From assembly GCA_910589375.1 (NCBI GenBank), contig CAJUTK010000002.1, positions 3,133 through 67,132 of the forward strand: a stretch of DNA of 64,000 bases. The letters run 5' to 3'. The notes beneath the pieces are model-generated. The model saw only the letters and a program-made list of their open reading frames with translations, searched no databases and was not told where the DNA came from. The number at the start of each line of letters is the position of its first letter. Position 1 is the first letter of the stretch. The translations under genes were made by a program, and so were the position numbers. This stretch comes from an uncultured Bacilli bacterium. Lineage in GTDB: Bacteria; Bacillota_I; Bacilli_A; RF39; UBA660. Of the stretch, positions 1,722-36,809 are shown in pieces.

Positions 1722-1751
1722 TTTACAATACCTATAATTTTATGTTATAAT
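1722..1751 (+). promoter_or_regulatory. Sigma-A-like promoter (TTTACA-18-TATAAT) upstream of the pilin-DUF285 gene
   Basis: tttaca at 1722-1727 and tataat at 1746-1751. Confidence 0.4.
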
Positions 1752-1784
1752 TCCTTATAGTATAGGATACTAGGAGGTATATCT

Positions 1785-3671
1785 ATGTATAAGAAAAAAA
1801 GTGAAGGATTTACATTAATTGAATTGCTAGCAGTAATCGCGTTATTGGCGCTTGTAGCTTTAATAGCTTATCCTATTGTTATTAATTCAGTTAAAAAAAC
1901 GGGAAAGAAATTATCTAAAGAACAAATTAATAATATTGAGGACGCAGCCAGAGATTATGCAATTAAACATGGACCAGAGGAGTGCAGTTGCATTTCAATC
2001 GAGGATTTACAAACTGGAGGATATTTGGATAAAGGAAAAATATCAGATCCAGATACTGGGGAACAATTAAATGGTTATGTTACTATCGAATGGGTAGAGT
2101 CTCAAAGCCAATATAGTTATAAATATGGAGAAAATTGCAATTGCTCTGGTACTTCTGTTGGAGGACAAATTCAATTAGTTTTAAGTGTTGATCCTGGAGT
2201 TATTAAAGAATCTGGATGGGCAACTTCTACTTTTGATGTTAATGTAAGAGGTAAAAATATAACTGGATATTCGTATTGTATATCAAGTACAGGTGAGTGT
2301 ACTCCAAATACAAAAGTAATTGGAACAAAAGGAACAATACCTATAACAAAAGATGGAACCAATTATGTATGTGCACAAGGAACAAATGGTGGTGGAGACG
2401 GATCAGTTGTATGTAAAACTTATAAGTTAGATATTTCAGGACCTGTATTTGCGTCAGAGTCTGTATACTTTGATAACTATGGGAAAACTGAGGATTATGT
2501 AAATGTGAATTATGGAACAGTACGCTGTGATAAGACAATTAGTCAATTAACATCAAATACAAATAAAGTTAATTGTACTGTAACTAGTGTCAATGGTAAA
2601 AAGACAGAAAAAGAATTAAATTTTATACCTAATACATTAAAAGCTGATGTTTCTGTAACTAGCTCTGATACTACTTTTTTAGGAGGAAGTTTAAAAAGAA
2701 ATAAAGTAAAAGGAATACATATAGTAAATCATAAAAATATACCAAGCGATGCTACTAGTTGGGATGTGTCACATCACCAAAATGGAAGTGTTATGGCATG
2801 GTATGGTGCACCTGATTCTAATGGATTATATGATGTATATATTGGTCAAAATGGTGGTGTAGTAGCAAGAAGCGGGGATTATTTATTTTCTTATTTTAAT
2901 CATGCTACAACAGTGGATGTACAAAAATTAGACACTAGTAGAGTATCTAGTATGTTATTGATGTTTTATGATAGTCAAGCCCCGATATTAGATGTAAGTA
3001 ATTTTGATACAAGTAAAGTAACAACTATGTATGGTATGTTTTCTAATGCTAAAGCAAGAACATTAAATCTAAGTAATTTTGATACAAGCAAAGTCACGAA
3101 TATGGCCCATATGTTTAATGGAAGTGAAGCTACAACGCTAAATCTAAGTAATTTTGATACAAGCAAAGTAACAACTATGTATGCTATGTTTCATCAAAGT
3201 CAAGCTCAAACATTAAATTTAAGTAATTTTGATACAAGTAATGTGACGAATATGGAGCGTATGTTTTTTAATAGTAAAGCAACAACAATAGATGTAAGTA
3301 ATTTTGATACAAGTAAAATAACAACTATGTATGCTATGTTTTATCAAAGCCAAGCTCAGACATTAAATTTAAGTAGTTTTGATACAAGCAAAGTAACAAA
3401 TATGGAGCATTTATTTAATAAATGCCAAGCAACAACAATAGATGTAAGTAATTTTGATACAAGTAAAGTAACAACTATGTATGCCATGTTTAATCAAAGT
3501 CAAGCATTAATATTAGATTTAAGCAGTTTTGATACAAGCAGTGTAACGAATATGGATTCTATTTTCAACGCTGCTAGAACTACAACAGGTTATGCTAGAA
3601 CACAAGCTGATGCTGATAAATTTAATAGCTCTATTGGTAAACCATCTACATTAACATTTACTATTAAATAA
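1785..3671 (+). CDS. ComGC-like type IV (pseudo)pilin N-terminal module fused to a Cys/Gly/Thr-rich linker and ~8-10 DUF285-like 26-aa repeats (SNFDTSKVTxMxxMF...)
   Basis: Prepilin class III signal MYKKKSEG|FTLIELLAVIALLALVALIAYP with E at +5. KKLSKEQI...IEDLQTGGYL resembles ComGC (LADLQSEGYV). The N-terminal ~115 aa are ~60% identical to the ORF at 9745. The C-terminal half is NFDTS(K/N)VTxM..MF repeats, resembling the Mollicutes DUF285 family. Confidence 0.7.
   Translation: MYKKKSEGFTLIELLAVIALLALVALIAYPIVINSVKKTGKKLSKEQINNIEDAARDYAIKHGPEECSCISIEDLQTGGYLDKGKISDPDTGEQLNGYVTIEWVESQSQYSYKYGENCNCSGTSVGGQIQLVLSVDPGVIKESGWATSTFDVNVRGKNITGYSYCISSTGECTPNTKVIGTKGTIPITKDGTNYVCAQGTNGGGDGSVVCKTYKLDISGPVFASESVYFDNYGKTEDYVNVNYGTVRCDKTISQLTSNTNKVNCTVTSVNGKKTEKELNFIPNTLKADVSVTSSDTTFLGGSLKRNKVKGIHIVNHKNIPSDATSWDVSHHQNGSVMAWYGAPDSNGLYDVYIGQNGGVVARSGDYLFSYFNHATTVDVQKLDTSRVSSMLLMFYDSQAPILDVSNFDTSKVTTMYGMFSNAKARTLNLSNFDTSKVTNMAHMFNGSEATTLNLSNFDTSKVTTMYAMFHQSQAQTLNLSNFDTSNVTNMERMFFNSKATTIDVSNFDTSKITTMYAMFYQSQAQTLNLSSFDTSKVTNMEHLFNKCQATTIDVSNFDTSKVTTMYAMFNQSQALILDLSSFDTSSVTNMDSIFNAARTTTGYARTQADADKFNSSIGKPSTLTFTIK
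2975..3565 (+). repeat. Tandem array of ~78-bp near-identical coding repeats (two alternating subtypes, ~156-bp super-period) encoding the DUF285-like repeats
   Basis: The unit aattttgatacaagtaaagtaacaactatgtatgctatgttt... recurs about 8 times with >85% nucleotide identity. Confidence 0.8.
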
Positions 3672-3704: not shown

Positions 3705-4301
3705 ATGAAAAATAGAATAGTATTAGCATTAGCAATCTTACTGTTAGTGATTCCAGTAGGTTGTGGAAAAAAGAAAGAGAATTTAACAGATGCTCAAAAG
3801 TTTGCTAAAGAGTACACAAATGTGTCAGAGGATAATGTATTTGTATATAGTACAGTGGATGAAATCATAGATATTTTAGAAAGTGGTACAGGGATTATTT
3901 ATTTAGGATCTAAAGATAATATATGGTCACAGGCATATGTAAAATACTTAAATGAAGTTGCAAAAGAAGTAGGAATAGAGAAAGTATACTATTTAGATAT
4001 TATAGAAGTACAAAAAAACAATACTGATAAATATTTAAAAATAGTAGAATCTGTAAAAGATTATCTACAATATGACGATAATGGTGAAAGGGTAATTTCG
4101 GTTCCAACTGTAATTGGAATGAACAAGGGATTTGTAGTAGGATTTAATGATGAAACTGCATGGAATACAAAAGGATATAGTAAGCCAGAAGAATATTGGA
4201 AAGAAGAAGAAATTTCAAAGTTAAAAAACAGATTAAGCGAAATGGCTAATGCAACGAAGTTTTGCATAGATTGTAATGAGGTCAATAATCCAGAAATTTA
4301 A
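3705..4301 (+). CDS. Lipoprotein of unknown function
   Basis: Signal peptide with lipobox LLVIPVGC. RBS ggagag upstream. Confidence 0.55.
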   Translation: MKNRIVLALAILLLVIPVGCGKKKENLTDAQKFAKEYTNVSEDNVFVYSTVDEIIDILESGTGIIYLGSKDNIWSQAYVKYLNEVAKEVGIEKVYYLDIIEVQKNNTDKYLKIVESVKDYLQYDDNGERVISVPTVIGMNKGFVVGFNDETAWNTKGYSKPEEYWKEEEISKLKNRLSEMANATKFCIDCNEVNNPEI

Positions 4302-4305
4302 ATTA

Positions 4306-4334
4306 AAAAGTCCACCAATAAGGTGGCTTTTTTA
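4306..4334 (+). terminator. Rho-independent terminator
   Basis: aaaaagtccacc-aataa-ggtggctttttt. Confidence 0.55.
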
Positions 4335-4400: not shown

Positions 4401-4565
4401 TTATTTTTTTCTTTGTTTATAACTATTGCACATAGTAGATTCTTTATCTTCGTTATGTCCGCAATTACATACTTTAATTTCTTTTAAATTGCATACACAA
4501 TCATCACAATTACAATGCTTGCAGTCAAATACGTTACATTCGATTTTTTGTGTTTTGTTTTCCAT
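4401..4565 (-). CDS. Cysteine-rich mini-protein (54 aa, 9 Cys; DUF1540-like)
   Basis: Reverse-strand translation gives MENKTQKIECNVFDCKHCNCDDCVCNLKEIKVCNCGHNEDKESTMCNSYKQRKK*. Too short to appear in the ORF track (<60 aa). Divergent from the activase operon. Confidence 0.45.
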   Translation of the reverse strand: MENKTQKIECNVFDCKHCNCDDCVCNLKEIKVCNCGHNEDKESTMCNSYKQRKK

Positions 4566-4630
4566 TCTATCACCCATTTATATTTTTAGCATATTTTAAT
4601 AATTTATACATATAGTATAGTGGTGATAAA

Positions 4631-5521
4631 ATGGACAAGGTAAAAATCGGAATACCAAGAGGAATACACTACTATTATTCTGGAATATTTTGGAAATATT
4701 TTTTTAAAAAATGTAATATTGATGTCATTTATAGTTCGAAAACGACTCATGAAATCTTAGAAATAGGTAAGTCTTTAGCGCCCGATGAAATGTGTCTTAG
4801 TATGAAAGTTTATTTAGGTCATATTTCTTCTTTGGAGGGAAAATGTGATTATATTTTAATACCAAGAATAGATAGATTTGATAATTATAATCAAACCTGT
4901 ACAAATTTTTTAGCAATTTATGATCTTGCTAATCACTATTTTAAAACTCCATTATTAAATTATAATATTGATAATAAAAATCATTTATTAGATGGATTAA
5001 TTGAAATAGGGGAAGTACTTCATCTTTCTAAAATGAAAGTGATAGAAGCTTATGAATATGCATGCCTAAAGGAAAGAGAATGGAGAAAAAGTAAAAATGA
5101 GGAACAAAAGAGAATTTTAAATGGAAAAGATAAAAAAGTTCTAATTGTTTCCCACGCTTATAATATTCATGATGATTTTATTGGTGGATCTATCTCTAGT
5201 ATGCTAGAACAAAATAAAATTAAAGTAGTTTATAGTAATTATTTTTTACCCGAAGAAACAAGTAAGATGTCAGAAAAATTGTCTAAAAGTTTATATTGGA
5301 AATATAGTAAAGAAAGTATTGGAGCAATTCCTTTATGTGAAAAGGTAAATGGAATTATATTTTTATCCACTTTTCCATGTGGGTTAGATTCTTTAGTGCA
5401 TGAGTTAATGATTCGAAAGATGGAAAAACCATATTTAAATCTTGTTATAGATGATTTATCTTCTATGACTGGGATAGAAACTAGAATAGAAAGTTTTGTT
5501 GATTTAATTGAGCAAGGTTAG
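4631..5521 (+). CDS. Activase-associated protein (DUF2229 / HgdB-like family)
   Basis: 296 aa. First gene of a three-gene operon ending in a BadF/BcrA/HgdC-type ATPase; family assignment rests on that architecture plus weak pattern similarity. RBS ggtgat. Confidence 0.4.
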   Translation: MDKVKIGIPRGIHYYYSGIFWKYFFKKCNIDVIYSSKTTHEILEIGKSLAPDEMCLSMKVYLGHISSLEGKCDYILIPRIDRFDNYNQTCTNFLAIYDLANHYFKTPLLNYNIDNKNHLLDGLIEIGEVLHLSKMKVIEAYEYACLKEREWRKSKNEEQKRILNGKDKKVLIVSHAYNIHDDFIGGSISSMLEQNKIKVVYSNYFLPEETSKMSEKLSKSLYWKYSKESIGAIPLCEKVNGIIFLSTFPCGLDSLVHELMIRKMEKPYLNLVIDDLSSMTGIETRIESFVDLIEQG

Positions 5522-6554
5522 TTATCCCCAAATGGGAAGTTATGGAGTTCCCATTTATTATTTATTAACTCATATATTGAAGAATGATATAGTAAAGCCA
5601 AGAGAGATTAGTTCCTATACGCTAGAGCTAGGAAGCAAATATAGTCCTGATTTTGTATGTACTCCTTTTAAGTATACTTTAGGAACTATGCTAGAATCTT
5701 TAGAAGAGGGAGCTGATTTTTTAATTCAATTAGGTGGTGGTTGCAGGTATGGATATTATCATGAATTGCAAGAACAAATTTTAAAAGATTTAGGGTATCA
5801 ATTTACTATGGTAAATTTAATAAGTGGGGGAAATAGAATATCTATAAAAAAACTTTTGAAAGAATATCCATTAGAAATTAGAAAGAAAAATTTAGTAAGG
5901 TATCTTTTAATAACAAAGAAAATGGTTATTTATATGGATAAAATAGATGCTTATATTAGAAAAAATAGGTGCTACGAAAAAGAAATAGGAGCATTTAATA
6001 AATTAAGAGATGAAATGTTAACAGAATTTTCTAATTGTAAGAGTTATATGCATTTACGTAGAGTCTATAGAAAATATTTGAAAAAAATGAAGAACATTCC
6101 TAGAAGGGATGTTAATAAAAAAATTAAAGTAGGAATTATAGGAGAACTTTATACTCTAATGGAACCTAAAGCTAATGAGGAGATAGAGCAATTATTAAAT
6201 GAAAGAGGTATTGAGTTAAAAAGGTATACGAATGTGACATATCTTTTATTTCAAAAAAGAAAGTCTGTTAAAAAGTATTTAAAAAATTTTTTTATTAAAT
6301 ATAGAATGGGTGCAGATGCCTTAGATAATATTCATCATACAAAAGAATTATGTGAAAAAGGATATGATGGGATTATTCATATGAAATCTTCTTTTTGTAC
6401 ACCTGAAATAGGAGCAATGCCTATTATAGAAAGTGTAGCGCAAGAATATAATGTTCCAGTTTTATTTTTTAGTATGGATACTCATACATCAGAAACAGGA
6501 TTTTTGACTAGAATAGAGGCATTTTGCGATATGTTAGAAATGAGGAAATCATGA
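5508..6554 (+). CDS. Activase-associated protein (DUF2229-like), second copy; start uncertain (TTG 5508 or ATG 5532)
   Basis: 348 aa. Overlaps the upstream stop. Typical paired arrangement with the preceding gene. Confidence 0.4.
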   Translation: MSKVSYPQMGSYGVPIYYLLTHILKNDIVKPREISSYTLELGSKYSPDFVCTPFKYTLGTMLESLEEGADFLIQLGGGCRYGYYHELQEQILKDLGYQFTMVNLISGGNRISIKKLLKEYPLEIRKKNLVRYLLITKKMVIYMDKIDAYIRKNRCYEKEIGAFNKLRDEMLTEFSNCKSYMHLRRVYRKYLKKMKNIPRRDVNKKIKVGIIGELYTLMEPKANEEIEQLLNERGIELKRYTNVTYLLFQKRKSVKKYLKNFFIKYRMGADALDNIHHTKELCEKGYDGIIHMKSSFCTPEIGAMPIIESVAQEYNVPVLFFSMDTHTSETGFLTRIEAFCDMLEMRKS

Positions 6555-7480
6555 GAGATTGTTATTTAGGAATAGATATAGGTTCCATTTCTACAAAGGC
6601 AGCTATCATAGATGCTGATTATAGAATATTAAGTTCTTGTTACATAGAGACAAATGGTAACCCCATAGAGGCAGTGAAAAAGGCAATTAAAATGGTTAGT
6701 ATTCCAGAGAACTATGTTTTAAGAGGAATAGGAACGACTGGGAGTGCCCGTAAATTAATTGGATTGTTATTAAATGCCAACATTGTGAAAAATGAAATTA
6801 CTGCGCATGCAATTGGAACGCTAACTTTTCATCCAGAAGTAAAAACTATTTTAGAAATTGGTGGTCAGGATTCTAAAGTTATTTTAATACGCAATGGTAT
6901 GATTAGTGATTATGCGATGAATACATTATGTGCAGCCGGAACAGGAGCTTTTTTATCAAGTCAGGCTAAAAGATTAGGAATAGATGTAAAAGAATTCGGA
7001 AATATTGCCTTAGAAAGTGATAATCCTGTAAACATTGCAGCACGTTGTACTGTGTTCGCAGAGTCTGATTTAGTTCATAAAGCTCAAGTCGGATATCCTA
7101 AAAAAGATATTGTTGCAGGCCTATGCAAATCGGTTGTTTTAAATTATTTGAATAATGTATGTAAGGGTAAAAGAATAGAAGGACCAATTATCTTCCAGGG
7201 GGGAGTATCTAAAAATAAGGGAGTAGTAAAATATTTTGAAGAAGAATTAAAGCAAAAAATATTGGTAGATGAAAATGGACATTTAATGGGAGCAATTGGT
7301 GTTGCAATACTTTCTTCTAAAGCAGAAAATAAAGAATACTATGACTTAAATATTGAAAATATTTCATTTAAAACAATCGGAAATGAGTGTAAGGGATGTA
7401 CGAATAGATGTGAATTACTAAGAATATATAGAAATGAAGAATTATTAGATACTTGGGGTAGTAAATGCGGAAAATATTAA
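6551..7480 (+). CDS. CoA-substrate-specific enzyme activase (BadF/BadG/BcrA/BcrD / HgdC-type ATPase, ASKHA fold) with C-terminal Cys cluster
   Basis: LGIDIGSISTKAAI phosphate-1 motif, EITAHAIG, EIGGQDSKVILI, CAAGTGAFL, and a C-terminal CKGCTNRCELL...CGKY. Confidence 0.7.
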   Translation: MRDCYLGIDIGSISTKAAIIDADYRILSSCYIETNGNPIEAVKKAIKMVSIPENYVLRGIGTTGSARKLIGLLLNANIVKNEITAHAIGTLTFHPEVKTILEIGGQDSKVILIRNGMISDYAMNTLCAAGTGAFLSSQAKRLGIDVKEFGNIALESDNPVNIAARCTVFAESDLVHKAQVGYPKKDIVAGLCKSVVLNYLNNVCKGKRIEGPIIFQGGVSKNKGVVKYFEEELKQKILVDENGHLMGAIGVAILSSKAENKEYYDLNIENISFKTIGNECKGCTNRCELLRIYRNEELLDTWGSKCGKY

Positions 7481-9744: not shown

Positions 9745-10104
9745 ATGAAAAAGAGTGATGGTTTTACATTAGTAGAATTAATGGCAGTAATTGCCGTTTT
9801 AGCGCTTATAGCAATAATTGCATATCCAATTGTTACAGGTGTTATTAAAACATCTGAGAAGAAATTATCTAAAGAGCAAATCCGTACTATTGAGGAAGCA
9901 GCGAGAACTTATACTATCAAGAATGGACCAGAAAGTTGTGGCTGTGTTTCTATCGCTGATTTGCAATCAAGCGGATATTTAGAGACTGGTAAAATAATGG
10001 ATCCAGAAACTGGTAATCAATTAACAGGGCAGGTTACTATTAAATGGTTAGAGGATAAAAAACAATATACCTATACTTATGGAACTAGTTGTGGGTGTAA
10101 TTAA
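9745..10104 (+). CDS. ComGC-like type IV (pseudo)pilin, stand-alone
   Basis: MKKSDG|FTLVELMAVIAVLALIAIIAYP prepilin signal with E at +5. SIADLQSSGYLETGKI matches the ComGC LADLQSEGYV region. Paralog of the 1785 N-terminus. Confidence 0.7.
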   Translation: MKKSDGFTLVELMAVIAVLALIAIIAYPIVTGVIKTSEKKLSKEQIRTIEEAARTYTIKNGPESCGCVSIADLQSSGYLETGKIMDPETGNQLTGQVTIKWLEDKKQYTYTYGTSCGCN

Positions 10105-11079: not shown

Positions 11080-12333
11080 TTATTTTTTTAAAAACTTTCT
11101 AATTTTTGGAAAGACTTTACGATATCCAAAGTATAGAATAGGATGAATAACATAATCGAATTGACCAATAAATTCCATATATTCTCCGCCAAATCTTTTT
11201 TTAAACAAATGAATTCCATACACAGTATTATCTTTTTCTGGTTCTCCAGTTGTACCAAAGAAATCAACTGTTTGATATCCTTCTTTTACTGCATCTTCAA
11301 TGATTTGATAGTATAGCCAATAGTTGGCATTTAAATATCTTAAACAAGTTCTATTTCCACCATGAATTGTCCAAACTTTACTTTGATATTTTGCAGTGAT
11401 AATAGCAGATAAAACCATTTCTTTTTCTGTAATATTTTCAAGTTCTTTTAATTCTGATTCATTTTTTTCTAATTGTTGATTCAATTCTTTTAATTTGATT
11501 GCTACTTTCTCTTGATTTTTCTTTTCATCTTTTACACTTGCTAATTTTATTTCTTCATGAATAACTTTAATTTTTTCTTCATAATTTTTTTTCAATTCTT
11601 CAATATTTACTTTTACAAGGTAGATATCACTCATATTTTGTTCATGAAGTTTTTCATAAAAATTTTCATAGTATCCAATAGGAGAAAGTACAAGATTTTC
11701 TCTTTCTGCAGTTTCAATCATAGTATCGTAAAAGTCTTTTATATCTTCTTTGGTACCTTTATAAATATCTAAGTGATAGATATTTCCTCTATTAATAATT
11801 TTTCTAGTAGTAGGGTGCATATTTTTTCTAATGTCTTCTATTCCTTTACTAATATCAAGTCTAAAGGTATAACGTGGTTGATCGTTTTCAAAATTTTTAT
11901 TAAATCCACTATGTTTAAACCCCATCTTTTTTAAGGTGTCAACTAATTCATAATTTAGTGGTTCTAATATATTTCCATCACTATCTAGTTTTTGAAGTGG
12001 AATATCTGGATCAATTCTTAAAAAAAGACCATGCTTTTTTTTGCAGTATTTTTTTAAAAAAGTGGAAAATTCTTTTAAGATTTCTTTGTTTTGATAGTCA
12101 CATACAAATCCTCTAGGACAGTAGAAAAAGGAATATTTACTAATTAAATGTTTTTCTAATAATAGTGCAGTGGCAATTAATTTTCCGTCTTGTTTCATTC
12201 CTAAATAGTGAGGTTTAAAATGTTTAAAACTACTTACATTTCCCCAATAATAGGATTGCATAAAGTGTCCTTTTTTACTTTTATTTACAAATTCTTCAAA
12301 TTCTTTTTCCTTTAAGTTTTCTATAAATTCCAT
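11080..12333 (-). CDS. FemAB-family peptidoglycan bridge-formation protein (second paralog, with a coiled-coil insert)
   Basis: 417 aa. QSYYWGNV... N-terminus and a ~60-aa Lys/Glu coiled-coil arm, as in FemA/FemB. Confidence 0.65.
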   Translation of the reverse strand: MEFIENLKEKEFEEFVNKSKKGHFMQSYYWGNVSSFKHFKPHYLGMKQDGKLIATALLLEKHLISKYSFFYCPRGFVCDYQNKEILKEFSTFLKKYCKKKHGLFLRIDPDIPLQKLDSDGNILEPLNYELVDTLKKMGFKHSGFNKNFENDQPRYTFRLDISKGIEDIRKNMHPTTRKIINRGNIYHLDIYKGTKEDIKDFYDTMIETAERENLVLSPIGYYENFYEKLHEQNMSDIYLVKVNIEELKKNYEEKIKVIHEEIKLASVKDEKKNQEKVAIKLKELNQQLEKNESELKELENITEKEMVLSAIITAKYQSKVWTIHGGNRTCLRYLNANYWLYYQIIEDAVKEGYQTVDFFGTTGEPEKDNTVYGIHLFKKRFGGEYMEFIGQFDYVIHPILYFGYRKVFPKIRKFLKK

Positions 12334-26892: not shown

Positions 26893-28908
26893 ATGATTAT
26901 GGAGTATTATGGTGGCTATATGGATACAGAAGATATAAGGGAGCTTTTTCATACTAATAAAAATGGAACGAATGCATTTGATATTGTAGAAGGAGTAAAA
27001 CAAATTGGCTTTTCTGCAAAGGGGGTTTTTTGTCCAACAGATAAGTTATTAGAAGAAGAATTAATGCTTCCTTGTATAGCAAACGTAACGATGAATCAAT
27101 CTTATTCTCACTTTGTAGTGATTTATGAAATAGATAAGAAGAAGCAGAAGTTAATAATAGCAGATCCTGCCAATAAAATTATGGAGATAAAGTTAGATGT
27201 TTTTAATGCTATCTATAGTGGAAATCTACTGTTTTTATATCCTATAAAACCATTACTACATTTTGAAAAAAAGAGAATTTCATTAAGAGATATATGGATA
27301 CTTTTACAGGATAGTAAAAAATTAATTATGCAAGTTTTTTTGATATCTATCTTTATCATAACTTATGCAATTGCCACTTCTTTTTATGGTGAAACTATGT
27401 TAAAAAAATTACAAATGAATCAGCAAAGCTCTTATTTTTTATTTCTATTTCTCATTTTTTCAATTCTTACTTTTTTAAAGTTAACAAGTGAATTTATTAG
27501 AACTAAATTAATTCTTTGGATAGAAAAGAATGTGGATATTTTATTAACCCAGGATATATTTTTTAAAGTTTTATTCCTTCCATATTGTTATTATCATAAT
27601 CACACCTCGGGAGACATTTTGTCTAGAATGAATGGAATTAATGATATTAAAGTTGCTATTAGTAAATGGCTTATGGTTCTTATAGTTGACATTCCTCTCA
27701 TGCTGATATCTTTTATTTGTCTTTATATTCTCCATTCTAAATTAGCAATTATAATAGTTTTATTTTTTATATTACAGCTTTTCGTATTAAAACTTTTTAG
27801 TAATCCTTTAAAAGAAAAAATAGAAGAATGTCAAAAAGAAAATGCATACTTATCCACTCTTAAAGTAGAAGGAATTCAGTCTTTTGAGACAATCAAAGGA
27901 ATTTCCTTAGAAAAGTATTTTTATAAAAAGTGGATGGAACAAAAAGTTTCTTTTATCAGAAAAATTCATAGCTTAGAAAGTATTATCGGAGTAGAAAGTT
28001 ATATAAAAGAATTTTTTCAAGAATTTAGCTCTTTACTTTTATTGCTGTTTGGCTGTCTATTTGTAAAAGAAGGTTCATTACAATTTTCTACTTTATTGAC
28101 AATTCAGACTTTGTCTCTTTATTTTTATACTCCTGTTGGAGAATTTATAGATTTGAATAGAGATACGAAACAAGCAGTGGTAGCTTGGGAGAGACTTTCT
28201 ATATTATCTAAAAAAGATTCTGGAAAAGGATTTTTAAAAAATTATCAAACGGATAATATTATTTTTCAAGATGTAACTTATTCTTATAGACCAAGTATGG
28301 AGGTATTACATCACGTAAACCTAACTATAAAAAAGGAAGATAAGGTTTTAATTTTAGGAAGTAGTGGAAGTGGAAAAAGTACTTTATTTAAACTGTTAAA
28401 AAGGTATTATGAAATCCCTAGAAATAAAATTCTTTTAGGAATTAATGATATAAATGATTATGATAATGTTAATTTTATTTCCTATATTCATCAAAATGAA
28501 AATTTGTATACAGGAAGTATGCTTGAAAATATTGTATTAGGAGAGAAAGTTGATGAAAGCTATTTAGAAAAAGTTTGTAAAATTTGTAAATTAGATGAAA
28601 TTATAAATAGAGAACAGTTAGGATACTATCAATTAATAGAAGAAAATGGAATTAATCTTTCTGGTGGTGAAAGACAGAGAATCGTTCTAGCTAGGACTTT
28701 GCTTAAACCATTTTATATCTTGATAATAGATGAAGGACTGAATCAATTAGATGTAAATCTTGAAAGAAAAATCTTAAAGGATATTTTTCATGAGTTTTAC
28801 GATAAAACGATTATTGTAATTTCACATAGGGAAGAAAATTTAGATTTATTTTCTCATAAGGTAAGAATGTCTCATGGAAAAATTATAGAGGATGTGGAAA
28901 AATGCTAG
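26893..28908 (+). CDS. Bacteriocin-type ABC transporter with N-terminal C39 peptidase domain; the 5' end is disrupted (catalytic-Cys segment is in frame upstream but has no start)
   Basis: The C39 motif QEEEKDCAIACFLMIMEYYGG lies in frame at 26854-26892, immediately after a stop at 26815. His region YSHFVVIY; 6 TM; Walker A GSSGSGKST; signature LSGGERQRIVLAR; Walker B ILIIDEG. Confidence 0.75.
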   Translation: MIMEYYGGYMDTEDIRELFHTNKNGTNAFDIVEGVKQIGFSAKGVFCPTDKLLEEELMLPCIANVTMNQSYSHFVVIYEIDKKKQKLIIADPANKIMEIKLDVFNAIYSGNLLFLYPIKPLLHFEKKRISLRDIWILLQDSKKLIMQVFLISIFIITYAIATSFYGETMLKKLQMNQQSSYFLFLFLIFSILTFLKLTSEFIRTKLILWIEKNVDILLTQDIFFKVLFLPYCYYHNHTSGDILSRMNGINDIKVAISKWLMVLIVDIPLMLISFICLYILHSKLAIIIVLFFILQLFVLKLFSNPLKEKIEECQKENAYLSTLKVEGIQSFETIKGISLEKYFYKKWMEQKVSFIRKIHSLESIIGVESYIKEFFQEFSSLLLLLFGCLFVKEGSLQFSTLLTIQTLSLYFYTPVGEFIDLNRDTKQAVVAWERLSILSKKDSGKGFLKNYQTDNIIFQDVTYSYRPSMEVLHHVNLTIKKEDKVLILGSSGSGKSTLFKLLKRYYEIPRNKILLGINDINDYDNVNFISYIHQNENLYTGSMLENIVLGEKVDESYLEKVCKICKLDEIINREQLGYYQLIEENGINLSGGERQRIVLARTLLKPFYILIIDEGLNQLDVNLERKILKDIFHEFYDKTIIVISHREENLDLFSHKVRMSHGKIIEDVEKC

Positions 28909-29345
28909 ACTCTAGAATGTATTTACACCCCAATACTATTTTAAAAAGAAAAATGCCTTCCTATTTTTGTTATTGGGTAGTTTTCCATTTATTATTTTGT
29001 CTTTTATTTTTCCCAATTTTTGCTTTTTATAAAATAGAGAAAAGGCTTACTGTTATTGGCTATTATCAAAATAACCAAGTACGGATAGTTACAGATAAAA
29101 GCTTTTTTCAACTTAAAACAGAAAATCTTAAAATAAATGAAAAGATGTATTTGTACCATATAAATAAAATACAACCTATTGCTTATGAAGAAGGAAAAGC
29201 TAGTTTATGGGAAGTAATGATATCTTTGAATCTACCAGATAGTTGGAAAGTTGATAATAATCAATTTGAACTGTCTTTCATACAAGAAGAAACAACTTTG
29301 CTAAAACAATTTTTAAAAACTATAAAGAAAGGGATGAGATTATAA
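28902..29345 (+). CDS. Short membrane-anchored accessory protein of the bacteriocin exporter (HlyD/LcnD-like N-terminal region only)
   Basis: One TM followed by a beta-rich stretch; translationally coupled to the ABC gene. Confidence 0.3.
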   Translation: MLDSRMYLHPNTILKRKMPSYFCYWVVFHLLFCLLFFPIFAFYKIEKRLTVIGYYQNNQVRIVTDKSFFQLKTENLKINEKMYLYHINKIQPIAYEEGKASLWEVMISLNLPDSWKVDNNQFELSFIQEETTLLKQFLKTIKKGMRL

Positions 29346-35078: not shown

Positions 35079-36809
35079 ATGAATGGCGGAAGAGGAGCAA
35101 AGGGATCTATTAATGATCGTCTAATTAGTATGATGTATCATAATAGATATAAGCTAGAACAAAGAAAAAAAGAAGGATATACAAAGGAAGAAAAAGCGAA
35201 ACAAAAAGAATATATTAAAACGATGCGTACTTTTGATATGGAGAAAGATACTGTCAGTTTGGAAGAAAAAGATAATAAAGTAGTTCAAGAAGCTTTTAAA
35301 CCATTACCAATAGAACAGATAGGTATACCTAGTTTAGAAAATACCCCAGTATTAAAACAGGAAGAGTCTAATTTTATAGTATTAGATAATCCTAGTGAAG
35401 AGGTAACTTTTAAAAGTATTGGAAGTAACCCTGCTACAATAGAAGATTTATCTAATAAACAGGTTCCTTTTAAATCATCCTATGAAGAAAGAGTATCAGA
35501 AATTAAGAGTGCAGGAACTGCTATAGAAAGTAGTTCAACTCCATCTGTTGCTAGTATTCATGATTTAAGTGGAAAAATGATAGATGTGGATATTGATACT
35601 GAGGTTTTTGATTTTGAACATTATGATTATTATGAAGTTCTTCAAACTCCTAAAGGAAAAGCTTCTAATTCTAGTTCAGAACAGTTTTTTGTACAAGATG
35701 AGTTAGCTATGCAAGATAGTGATGAAAGTTTAGATTTTGATAGAGAAATAGAAAAAGTAGAAGATGAAGAAACAATATTAGAAGAACTTACTACTTTTAT
35801 AGAGGATAGTCAGGAGACTTTACTAGATATTAAAGAGGACTTATTAGAAGTTAGAGAATTAGTTTCTCAAAGTAAGACACAAGAGCAAGTAGCAGAATTA
35901 GAAGAGCGATATGCTGCTATTCGTGCAAAAGTAGATAAATTGAAGGCTCAGTACGATGTAGTAAAAGAAAAATATAATTTTGATGATTTTCGAATCTTAG
36001 AAAGCATTGAAATGATGACTGCCATCGAAGATTATAAAGATAAAGCTTCTTTAGATGAACTAGAAACAATGGTAGATGTTTGCAAGGATGAGATAGATCA
36101 AATAGATGGAATATTAATAGAAGAAAAAAGAAGTGTTGCTGTAGCAGAAGAAGTAGAAGAACAAAGAAAAGCAGTGGTGAAACGTGATCAAGATTTCGAG
36201 AAAAATAGAGAAGGTGTTATTTATTTAGATGATTTAGAAAAGAAAATAGCACGTGAAGCAAGAGAACAGGCCTTGATTATTGCCGATTTAGAAAAGCAAT
36301 TAGGTAAATTTACAACAGATATAGAAGTGGTAAGAGAAACTGTTTATCACACAGAAAGATTATTTGGTTCCTTTTTTAGAATAGCAGCTGGAATTCTTAC
36401 GATGCCTTTTAATGGTAGACATATTTTTGGTACTATGTTAGGAACACATTTGATTAATAGGGGAATTCATCAACTTAGGGATTATATGAATCCTGAAGTA
36501 ATAGAAAGAACTGAAATTAAACATCGTTATAAAGATATTGAAAGAGAAATATTGAATAGTAAAGACTATGTAAAAACTACTGCCCACTTAATAGAAGATT
36601 CTATTTATCAGCTAGATAAGTTTGATGCTGAATTTAAACTTCGTTTTAGTGCCTATTCTAATCTTATACCTGCTTATGCGGAGGTAGAAAGAAAGATAGA
36701 AAGCTTAAAGAAGAGCTTAAAAATGAAAAAAGAAGAAGTAAATGTAATGTCAAAAGATTTAGATAGACAATATGAAGCAAATAAAGTAAAAGTAAAGAAA
36801 GCTTCTTAG
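35079..36809 (+). CDS. Large acidic coiled-coil protein with one hydrophobic segment near the C-terminus; function unknown
   Basis: 576 aa, Glu/Asp/Lys-rich, heptad-like stretches. Confidence 0.4.
   Translation: MNGGRGAKGSINDRLISMMYHNRYKLEQRKKEGYTKEEKAKQKEYIKTMRTFDMEKDTVSLEEKDNKVVQEAFKPLPIEQIGIPSLENTPVLKQEESNFIVLDNPSEEVTFKSIGSNPATIEDLSNKQVPFKSSYEERVSEIKSAGTAIESSSTPSVASIHDLSGKMIDVDIDTEVFDFEHYDYYEVLQTPKGKASNSSSEQFFVQDELAMQDSDESLDFDREIEKVEDEETILEELTTFIEDSQETLLDIKEDLLEVRELVSQSKTQEQVAELEERYAAIRAKVDKLKAQYDVVKEKYNFDDFRILESIEMMTAIEDYKDKASLDELETMVDVCKDEIDQIDGILIEEKRSVAVAEEVEEQRKAVVKRDQDFEKNREGVIYLDDLEKKIAREAREQALIIADLEKQLGKFTTDIEVVRETVYHTERLFGSFFRIAAGILTMPFNGRHIFGTMLGTHLINRGIHQLRDYMNPEVIERTEIKHRYKDIEREILNSKDYVKTTAHLIEDSIYQLDKFDAEFKLRFSAYSNLIPAYAEVERKIESLKKSLKMKKEEVNVMSKDLDRQYEANKVKVKKAS

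Follow-up and report, generated by a model that had tools for sequence, protein, structure and literature searches.

A probable modular type IV pilin with a fast-evolving DUF285 leucine-rich repeat head in an uncultured Bacilli bacterium

The open reading frame found at positions 1785..3671 of a 64,000-nucleotide window (the whole stretch of DNA that was analysed; all features given by coordinates here lie on its forward strand) starts with ATG and encodes a 628-aa modular type IV pilin, composed of a pilin module, two β-sandwich domains and a DUF285/PARCEL leucine-rich repeat (LRR) head. The product is a genuine modular pilin, a class defined on PilB and PilC of Streptococcus sanguinis, and its combination of domains has been catalogued since 2021. 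It is probably a minor, multi-domain type IV pilin presenting an adhesin head made of LRRs, which evolves fast. The original prediction of a pilin N-terminus carrying a DUF285 head, possibly an adhesin displayed on a pilus or pseudopilus, was sustained by the HMM scores, the invariant residues and the structural model, while its description of the protein as ComGC-like, undescribed and of a Mollicutes type had to be abandoned.

The reading frame is real and intact, the identical protein was found on at least 25 public contigs, and orthologues with 71-73% identity keep the synteny. A pseudogene or an assembly artefact was ruled out, since the frame is intact and identical across many independent assemblies. 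Within the 173-nt gap separating the gene from a divergent FemAB gene, a consensus scan recognised a putative sigma-70-like promoter by pattern match (TTTACA, an 18-nt spacer, TG and TATAAT, with 11/12 matches; 1722..1751), and a Shine-Dalgarno sequence, AGGAGG, was read 6 nt 5′ of the ATG (1773..1778). From these strong promoter-like and Shine-Dalgarno signals, together with the intact frame and the syntenic orthologues, the gene looks likely to be expressed. Directly 3′ of it lies the gene of a 198-aa lipoprotein with the lipobox PVGC (3705..4301), which is apparently co-transcribed with the fusion gene, judging by a 33-nt gap devoid of a terminator, and a terminator-like hairpin, also a pattern match, may end this two-gene unit (4312..4326). 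The lipoprotein matched no family in Pfam, NCBIfam or PDB; its gene accompanies the fusion in the P0003 loci, and the close relative L016 lacks both genes. A thioredoxin-like helper role of this lipoprotein for the Cys-rich pilin was considered and dropped, as no evidence spoke for it. The neighbours of the fusion gene comprise FemAB, the lipoprotein, a DUF2229/HGD-D/BcrAD cluster, topA and MIP, which do not correspond to a comG operon. A prophage or mobile-element origin was ruled out in view of the core housekeeping genes around the fusion gene and the lack of integrase and tRNA genes.

The prepilin-peptidase signal with Glu at +5 was confirmed. The sequence MYKKKSEG↓FTLIELL contains a short positive leader ending in Gly (aa 1-8; 1785..1808), with Phe at +1 and Glu at +5, and was recognised by Pfam N_methyl PF07963 (31.5 bits; cutoff 21.2) and by TIGR02532 (26.1 bits; cutoff 16.3), both of which aligned across the cleavage site, presumably placed after Gly8. 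The hydrophobic stretch of approximately 21 residues that harbors Glu +5, FTLIELLAVIALLALVALIAYP, is that expected of a type IV pilin. The pilin module (aa 9-121; 1809..2147) was modelled by AlphaFold2, with pLDDT of approximately 80-90, as an α1 helix spanning aa 11-62, including Glu +5 and Pro +22, and a small antiparallel β-sheet with strands at 67-71, 98-104 and 109-115, which corresponds to the pilin "lollipop" in the predicted structure. Its cysteines are arranged as CxC...CxC (C67/C69/C118/C120). In an alignment of 29 sequences, which included both pilins of the window and 20 homologues retrieved by HMMER, most members not having been selected by motif, F+1, T+2, L+3, E+5, L+6 and V+9 were invariant and P+22 was at least 90% conserved. 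A PDB sequence search with the pilin module returned matches that covered only the α1 helix of assorted pilins.

These observations bear directly on whether the protein is a pilin at all. An ordinary Sec signal peptide or anchor could resemble the motif by chance, in which case the gene would encode a plain secreted DUF285 protein; in fact, the prepilin motif was absent from most of the best 120 DUF285 matches, among which 109 presented other N-termini and only 2 a lipobox. However, two independent curated HMMs scored above cutoff, the G↓FTLxE motif is exact, and the approximately 110 residues past it form a pilin-like α1 and β-sheet domain sharing 64% identity with a bona fide small pilin. 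This explanation is already disfavoured and was judged very improbable. Neither of the outcomes that would have refuted the original prediction was observed: both pilin and DUF285 models were matched, and the N-terminus does not read as a plain Sec signal.

The ComGC-like globular region that had been assigned to the residues after the signal did not hold up, and this result also weighs on a possible role in competence. According to this alternative, the protein would be a ComGC-like subunit of the Com DNA-uptake pilus, whose head acts in transformation. Many monoderms possess a Com pilus (PMC7212644, PMC12153270), which could be the only type IV filament apparatus of a Bacilli bacterium with a small genome; moreover, the ComGC, ComGD and ComGE models gave weak sub-threshold matches, and the likeness to ComGC includes the class III signal and, for the 119-aa paralogue described below only, the small size. 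However, against a cutoff of 75 bits for the ComGC equivalog NF040999, the fusion reached 27 bits and the paralogue 29.4 bits, mainly by matching the generic α1 region. In the models of both proteins, α1 is followed by three β-strands and one short helix, an antiparallel β-sheet architecture, whereas the fold of ComGC is purely helical (PMC7212644). In addition, the gene is placed outside a comG operon, and LRR heads are typical of adhesins rather than of DNA receptors. A competence pseudopilus subunit is therefore an improbable identity for this protein.

Between the pilin module and the head, the region previously taken for a Cys/Gly/Thr-rich linker was modelled instead as two folded β-sandwich domains, all-β in the model (approximately aa 127-217 and 218-290; 2163..2654), with cysteines paired as 165/172, 196/210 and 248/264. 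The linker itself is reduced to the flexible segment GTSVG (aa 122-126; 2148..2162), which is the sole internal segment with pLDDT below 50 in a whole model of pLDDT 90 comprising the pilin lollipop, the linker, the two β-sandwiches and the solenoid. A Foldseek search of PDB with the full model returned only weak Ig-like matches; those falling on the stalk, to Ig-like, PKD and Rib domains, agreed with one another (E 5e-3 to 5e-2; target TM-score 0.53-0.69). A weak stalk match, with 34.5% identity and E of 1.8e-6, was detected in a protein of a related locus (L015/P0208) that carries Pfam Bact_surface_Ig-like.

The remainder of the protein bore out the C-terminal DUF285 array, which scored 188.6 bits with PF03382 (cutoff 25) and 207.1 bits, over 8 stretches, with the PARCEL model TIGR02167 (cutoff 30). 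The head begins with an N-terminal solenoid cap and irregular first turns, modelled with pLDDT above 90 (aa 291-377; 2655..2915), whose motif W..S..QNGS..AWY..D.NGLYDVYIGQNGGV is kept in the alignment consensus. It continues with the tandem DUF285/PARCEL repeats LSNFDTSKVTxMxxMF... predicted to form an LRR solenoid (aa 378-606; 2916..3602), which turned out to be nine repeats of 25 aa and not some ten of 26 aa. At the DNA level, the array shows a 75-nt period and a 150-nt super-period at 84% identity, with nine in-register copies by an anchor-based count. A C-terminal cap, composed in the model of a helix and a terminal strand, closes the protein (aa 607-628; 3603..3668) and is kept in P0002 and P0003. 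A PDB sequence search with the DUF285 part returned no match; the predicted fold is that of a BspA-like LRR solenoid, and relatives of the head are named "BspA family leucine-rich repeat surface protein" by NCBI.

DUF285 is thus a widely dispersed BspA-like LRR and not a repeat specific to Mollicutes, as had been supposed. The DUF285/PARCEL lipoproteins of Mycoplasma (Mbov_0838 family) present the same family of 25-26-aa repeats (PF03382, TIGR02167), in tandem and in variable number (PMC2996958). Unlike them, the fusion has no lipobox or lipoprotein signal, and it scored 80 bits with the Mbov_0838 model NF045896, for which the cutoff is 500; the words "pilin" and "prepilin" have no occurrence in the PARCEL paper (PMC2996958). 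As for the proteins of the BspA family or LRR_5 type, such as BACOVA_04585 (PDB 4fs7), Tannerella BspA, TpLRR and PcpA, they share only approximately 10% identity with the fusion and are anchored by lipid, choline-binding or secretion signals, not by a pilin module.

Comparison between strains revealed how unevenly these modules change. Identity to P0002 was 100% in the pilin module, 94% in the stalk, 87% in the cap and 58% in the LRR region, and motif-based repeat counts were 8, 9 and 11 in proteins of 628, 652 and 707 aa, respectively, the first of these being the window protein, for which the anchor-based count is nine. Next to a constant pilin module, the head therefore evolves fast, as residues are substituted and repeats gained or lost, a pattern that fits an adhesin or an antigen under diversifying selection. 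The LRR fold and the hypervariability of the head suggest that it may serve a filament-mediated function such as adhesion, and the fusion is most likely an adhesin.

The fusion had been regarded as an orphan, which proved correct for assembly genes and wrong for pilins. A stand-alone type IV pilin of 119 aa (N_methyl, 33.8 bits) is encoded 6 kb downstream, at 9745..10104; the public collection contains this exact sequence in 212 blocks. With aa 4-120 of the fusion it shares 64% identity, and the 113-aa module of the fusion and this pilin are recent paralogues. Its AlphaFold2 model (pLDDT 85) is an α1 and β-sheet lollipop with the same topology as the fusion module. A Foldseek search of PDB with this protein returned nothing significant, the best pilin match being PilA1 of C. 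difficile (E = 1.4). We infer that this small pilin is a candidate major subunit. Regarding the machinery, T2SSE, T2SSF and Peptidase_A24 were not detected in the 64-kb window, which was searched through precomputed Pfam hits on identical contigs, motif scans and Pfam on unannotated ORFs, and the available flanks contained no extension ATPase (PF00437) or platform (PF00482) gene either. Moreover, PROSITE-type T2SSE/T2SSF, A24 and Walker A motifs were absent from the window and from 98 sequences of related loci (1.77 Mb, mostly the same syntenic region), with the exception of a single Walker A match (L061), which was found to belong to a TraG/VirD4-like coupling protein, irrelevant to pilus assembly. 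Within 10 kb of the eight other related pilin loci inspected, genes for an extension ATPase, a platform protein or a prepilin peptidase were likewise not found. The lack of assembly genes in the 64 kb and near the related loci counts against the minor-pilin reading, as do the negative Foldseek result for the small pilin and the pilin matches in PDB, restricted to α1.

If the protein is a minor pilin, its route to the surface may be outlined as follows. The hydrophobic α1N helix would place the prepilin in the membrane, where a peptidase encoded elsewhere in the genome would cut after Gly8. The α1 helix and Glu5 would then dock the module into a type IV filament in which a small major pilin predominates, probably the 119-aa neighbour. 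By analogy with what was proposed for PilB and PilC, the bulky C-terminal part would fit only at or near the filament tip. In the predicted structure, the 5-residue linker and the two Ig-like β-sandwiches would form a stalk, holding the nine-repeat LRR solenoid past the cell wall, and the head would bind a ligand, maybe a surface molecule of host, mucus, dietary or microbial origin.

This outline must be weighed against a pilin-type anchor acting outside any pilus, in which the class III signal and α1N would do no more than carry the protein out and fix it to the membrane or to a very short pseudopilus stub. The fusion would then be an ordinary cell-surface protein with an LRR head, and its N-terminus a general surface-display device of the lineage, much as in archaeal surface proteins with class III signals. 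Relatives do encode many dispersed N_methyl proteins bearing unrelated heads (DUF6273, ALK/LTK glycine-rich and FGE-sulfatase-like), including giants of 1840-1871 aa with Ig, fn3, BNR and Flg_new domains, and in nine contexts the pilin-headed genes adjoined housekeeping genes and never assembly genes. It is also hard to picture so many dispersed pilin-headed proteins, up to 1871 aa long, all placed at filament tips, which counts against tip placement itself. However, two residues that are important for building a filament but not for anchoring, Glu+5 and Pro+22, show no or almost no variation, and a small stand-alone pilin suited as major subunit is conserved nearby. Furthermore, the full globular pilin domain has been kept, and it is 100% identical between strains whose heads share 58%, which would be unexpected for a mere anchor. 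The anchor explanation is accordingly considered rather unlikely, and display by a minor pilin is preferred.

The same repertoire permits a broader, tentative proposal, which is possible but doubtful: in this lineage of gut Bacilli with small genomes, the type IV pilin N-terminus would be a general chassis for a large, fast-evolving surface repertoire. The heads seen on it include DUF285 LRRs, DUF6273, ALK/LTK glycine-rich domains, Flg_new and Ig/fn3 giants of up to 1871 aa. Their genes may occupy recurrent "slots" beside housekeeping genes, namely after topA, tuf, ftsZ and the gene of a cell-division PBP (penicillin-binding protein), and may be swapped between close species. The DUF285 pilin may thus be one cassette of an "adhesin wardrobe", located at the pilus tip or anchored by pilins, that would be undescribed for the group; a literature search on RF39 together with pili or competence returned nothing relevant.

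The closest functional precedents are PilB and PilC of S. sanguinis, whose adhesive role was established by experiment and whose models place them at the tip of the pilus (PMC8179133, PMC9934059). PilC consists of a pilin module, an Ig-like fold and a ConA-like lectin, and PilB of a pilin module and a vWA domain (PMC8179133, PMC9934059). The fusion shares with them the class III signal, a pilin module that is small and complete, a short flexible linker, grafted non-pilin modules and a monoderm host, and, as in PilC, an Ig-like spacer precedes the binding head; the modules grafted in PilB and PilC have a predicted or known ligand-binding function. In accordance with the definition of modular pilins, N_methyl and DUF285 occur in one protein, with separate pilin, stalk and LRR modules and a low-confidence linker. 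In contrast to PilB and PilC, the head of the fusion is a DUF285/BspA-type LRR solenoid and not a vWA or lectin module, the stalk comprises two β-sandwich domains, and sequence homology could be detected only in α1. Moreover, pilB and pilC are found inside a pil locus, whereas the fusion gene lies outside any pil operon with assembly genes.

The architecture itself, held in the original prediction to be undescribed, was found in Dataset S1 of Raynaud et al. 2021 (PNAS), which lists the combination IPR012902-IPR005046 in 22 proteins and 9 architectures, some of them with a PF08428 Rib spacer. These proteins present the same architecture as the fusion, including the Ig-like Rib spacer between the pilin motif and DUF285, but were merely counted, and not described, modelled or given a genomic context. 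At least 13 distinct N_methyl-DUF285 proteins were found in metagenomes in the present analysis. Since the architecture had already been counted in InterPro-based surveys, a single gene of this kind would not surprise specialists. If confirmed, it would extend the modular-pilin concept to LRR heads; so far the experimental basis of that concept lies in the vWA and lectin modules of one streptococcus. An LRR head whose binding surface is hypervariable, presented by a pilus, would also be a concrete and testable candidate adhesin for attachment of these gut organisms to host, mucus or partner cells. In addition, the fusion and the small pilin, at 64% identity, offer themselves as a pair in which the docking of a modular pilin on a major subunit could be modelled or reconstituted.

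A search of the genome contigs with the N-terminal 330 aa returned no relative, likely because the closest species representative, L016, whose TopA is 96% identical, does not carry the fusion gene. Relatives identified through TopA and NCBI taxonomy bear the labels Candidatus Coprosoma, Candidatus Fimihabitans, CAG:822 and "uncultured Tenericutes"; names such as CAG:822 and Candidatus Fimihabitans suggest that the lineage probably corresponds to the RF39 group. The uncultured Bacilli lineage is present in many gut-derived assemblies, and the close relatives derive from rabbit, sheep, goat, chicken and human gut MAGs.

The fusion gene is an intact ORF of 628 aa (1785..3671, + strand), whose translation begins with MYKKKSEG followed directly by FTLIELLAVIALLALVALIAYP. 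Both the prepilin and the DUF285 signatures read in it by the original prediction were recovered by HMM searches, far beyond chance: the fusion matched Pfam N_methyl (PF07963) at 31.5 bits (gathering cutoff, 21.2) and NCBIfam TIGR02532 at 26.1 bits (cutoff, 16.3), and its C-terminal half matched DUF285 (PF03382) at 188.6 bits (cutoff, 25) and the PARCEL repeat model TIGR02167 at 207 bits, in 8 stretches. The repeat array itself was confirmed, but its description as about ten 26-aa copies had to be revised to nine 25-aa copies in register (aa 378-606, anchor-based count), with a period of 75 nt in the DNA and a 150-nt super-repeat at 84% identity. Inside the array, a 63-aa ORF with its own repeat pattern (LLVSKLLRF...) runs antisense (2975-3166, - strand); it is probably not a gene, reflecting instead the 'palindromic' coding known from PARCEL repeats.

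An AlphaFold2 model of the fusion, built on a 45-sequence alignment, reached an average pLDDT of 90 (pTM, 0.67). The predicted N-terminal module is a canonical pilin lollipop, in which an alpha1 helix of 52 residues (aa 11-62) packs on three short antiparallel strands. In contrast, the head of ComGC is purely helical (PMC7212644), and because of its predicted strands the module is better regarded as a generic canonical pilin; the label 'ComGC-like', resting on a 27-bit match against a cutoff of 75, did not hold. A five-residue linker of low confidence (aa 122-126) leads to two all-beta domains (about aa 127-217 and 218-290), each with paired cysteines, that Foldseek matched weakly but consistently with Ig-like, PKD, and Rib domains, and the remainder forms a solenoid modelled very confidently (aa 300-628, pLDDT above 95). 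Judged by sequence and predicted fold, the protein belongs with type IV pilins; it also falls among modular pilins and DUF285/LRR proteins, and outside both ComGC and the Mycoplasma-type DUF285 lipoproteins.

Modular pilins, in which a functional module is grafted onto a pilin, are an established class defined on Streptococcus sanguinis PilB, with a vWA module, and PilC, with an Ig-like fold and a lectin; both were demonstrated experimentally to be adhesins, and their position at the pilus tip was modelled (PMC8179133, PMC9934059). In Dataset S1 of the 2021 survey by Raynaud et al., the combination IPR012902-IPR005046 (N_methyl-DUF285) is listed explicitly, with 22 proteins in 9 architectures, and the variants that include a PF08428 Rib (Ig-like) spacer have the same plan as the fusion. 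The feature described in the earlier reading is real and was interpreted correctly in outline, but the architecture is not new: it had already been catalogued, without any member being studied, and the fusion is a further member. The original PARCEL/DUF285 paper makes no mention of a pilin or prepilin.

The motif scan revealed one other prepilin motif in the 64-kb window, in a stand-alone type IV pilin of 119 aa encoded directly 3′ of topA (9745..10104, + strand). Since this small pilin shares 64% identity with aa 4-120 of the fusion, CxC...CxC cysteines included, and is modelled with the same lollipop fold, the fusion seems to have arisen from a duplicate of a local pilin by addition of a stalk and an LRR head. 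These cysteines, at aa 67-69 and 118-120 of the fusion (1983-1991 and 2136-2144) and at the same positions in the small pilin, may either pair as two disulfides that close the C-terminal region or bind a metal as a four-Cys site. In the public collection, the exact small-pilin sequence was found in 212 blocks. The small pilin appears to be fast-evolving: it shares 64% identity with its positional orthologue in L016, the locus of the closest GTDB representative, versus 96% for TopA and 93% for a nearby 58-aa protein. L016 keeps the small pilin and lacks both the fusion and the 198-aa lipoprotein encoded next to it. The slot after topA (position about 12100 in each of loci L016-L095) is occupied by a prepilin-type gene in at least 25 of the 80 species compared, all relatives, with products of 111-1871 aa, including giants with Big_7, fn3, BNR, Y_Y_Y, and Flg_new domains in L075 and L078. 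This slot has the look of a hot spot at which pilin cassettes are exchanged.

The most likely account, which we hold with somewhat better than even confidence, is that the fusion is a modular pilin located at or near the tip of a type IV filament, with an LRR head that binds a ligand. Prepilin peptidase would cut after Gly8, and the pilin module would then join a filament composed mainly of a small pilin, for which the one encoded after topA would be the obvious candidate as major subunit. The bulky C-terminal part would force a place at or near the filament tip, where the Ig-like stalk would push the head outward to its ligand. In a 29-sequence alignment, most members of which were retrieved by HMMER, residues F+1, T+2, L+3, E+5, L+6, and V+9 were invariant and P+22 was conserved in at least 90%, a pattern that favours genuine prepilin processing and assembly into a filament over the main rival explanation, in which the pilin N-terminus merely serves as an export and anchor device. 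That explanation, which we consider rather unlikely, would fit the many N_methyl proteins that are dispersed in relatives and carry unrelated heads (DUF6273 arrays, an ALK/LTK glycine-rich domain, giants of 1840-1871 aa), and whose genes, in nine contexts, adjoin housekeeping genes and never assembly genes. The wider pattern formed by the slot after topA and the other pilin-headed surface proteins scattered across these small genomes is the part worth following up.

By its TopA relatives, the organism is an uncultured gut 'Bacilli bacterium', probably of the RF39 group; these relatives carry the labels Candidatus Coprosoma, Candidatus Fimihabitans, Firmicutes CAG:822, and 'uncultured Tenericutes'. 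The modular pilin reading is also consistent with how the fusion varies among orthologues. Orthologues P0002 and P0003 are 71-73% identical to it and share its synteny; against P0002, identity falls from 100% in the pilin module to 94% in the stalk, 87% in the cap, and 58% in the LRR repeats. Motif counts gave 8, 9, and 11 repeats in proteins of 628, 652, and 707 aa, the 8 corresponding to nine by the anchor-based count in the window protein. This gradient and varying repeat number form a typical pattern for proteins in which a constrained assembly module bears an exposed head, binding or antigenic, that diversifies. The same pilin-stalk-DUF285 plan was found in other genomic contexts in more distant proteins (P0006, P0021, P0086/87, P0032, P0094, P0201, P0206, P0208, and P0210), and such proteins form at least 13 distinct clusters. 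Two arrays were also observed among housekeeping genes: five or six large N_methyl proteins of 350-583 aa in tandem, with faint DUF6273 matches (L096, 10001-20648), and pilin-like proteins of 517 and 1310 aa flanking a DUF285 pilin (L013, 2612-16494). No assembly genes were found within 10 kb of either.

Genomic context was taken from identical contigs with precomputed Pfam annotation covering the whole window. The gene order is tuf, FemAB (-), fusion, lipoprotein, 58-aa Cys-rich protein (-), DUF2229/HGD-D/BcrAD, topA, small pilin, MIP, and a second FemAB (-), with housekeeping genes beyond it (recA, rny, ribosomal proteins, secE-nusG-rplKAJL). As originally predicted, no assembly genes lie nearby: precomputed Pfam, motif scans, and Pfam searches of unannotated ORFs detected no T2SSE ATPase, T2SSF platform, or A24 peptidase in the 64-kb window. 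By sequence patterns, the fusion gene is preceded by a strong promoter-like site and a perfect SD, and it appears to be co-transcribed with the 198-aa lipoprotein gene (3705-4301, + strand; lipobox PVGC, C-terminal CIDC motif) as a two-gene unit ended by a hairpin at 4312-4326. Searches for a family or solved relative of this lipoprotein detected none. The 58-aa protein (4401-4577, - strand), with 10 cysteines in CxxC and CxC motifs, had no family match and is conserved in place in about 40 loci of related species. The two FemAB-family paralogues (361-1611 and 11080-12333, - strand) bracket the fusion/small-pilin region and imply that the peptidoglycan of this 'Tenericutes-like' lineage has interpeptide bridges; between them also lies the 2-hydroxyacyl-CoA-dehydratase-activator-like DUF2229/HGD-D/BcrAD_BadFG cluster (4631-7480). 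Elsewhere in the window, a 576-aa protein (35079-36809) gave only a faint LRR_ComC match, and a bacteriocin-type Peptidase_C39 ABC exporter (26893-29345, + strand), followed by a 147-aa ORF and small ORFs, may constitute a peptide-export locus.
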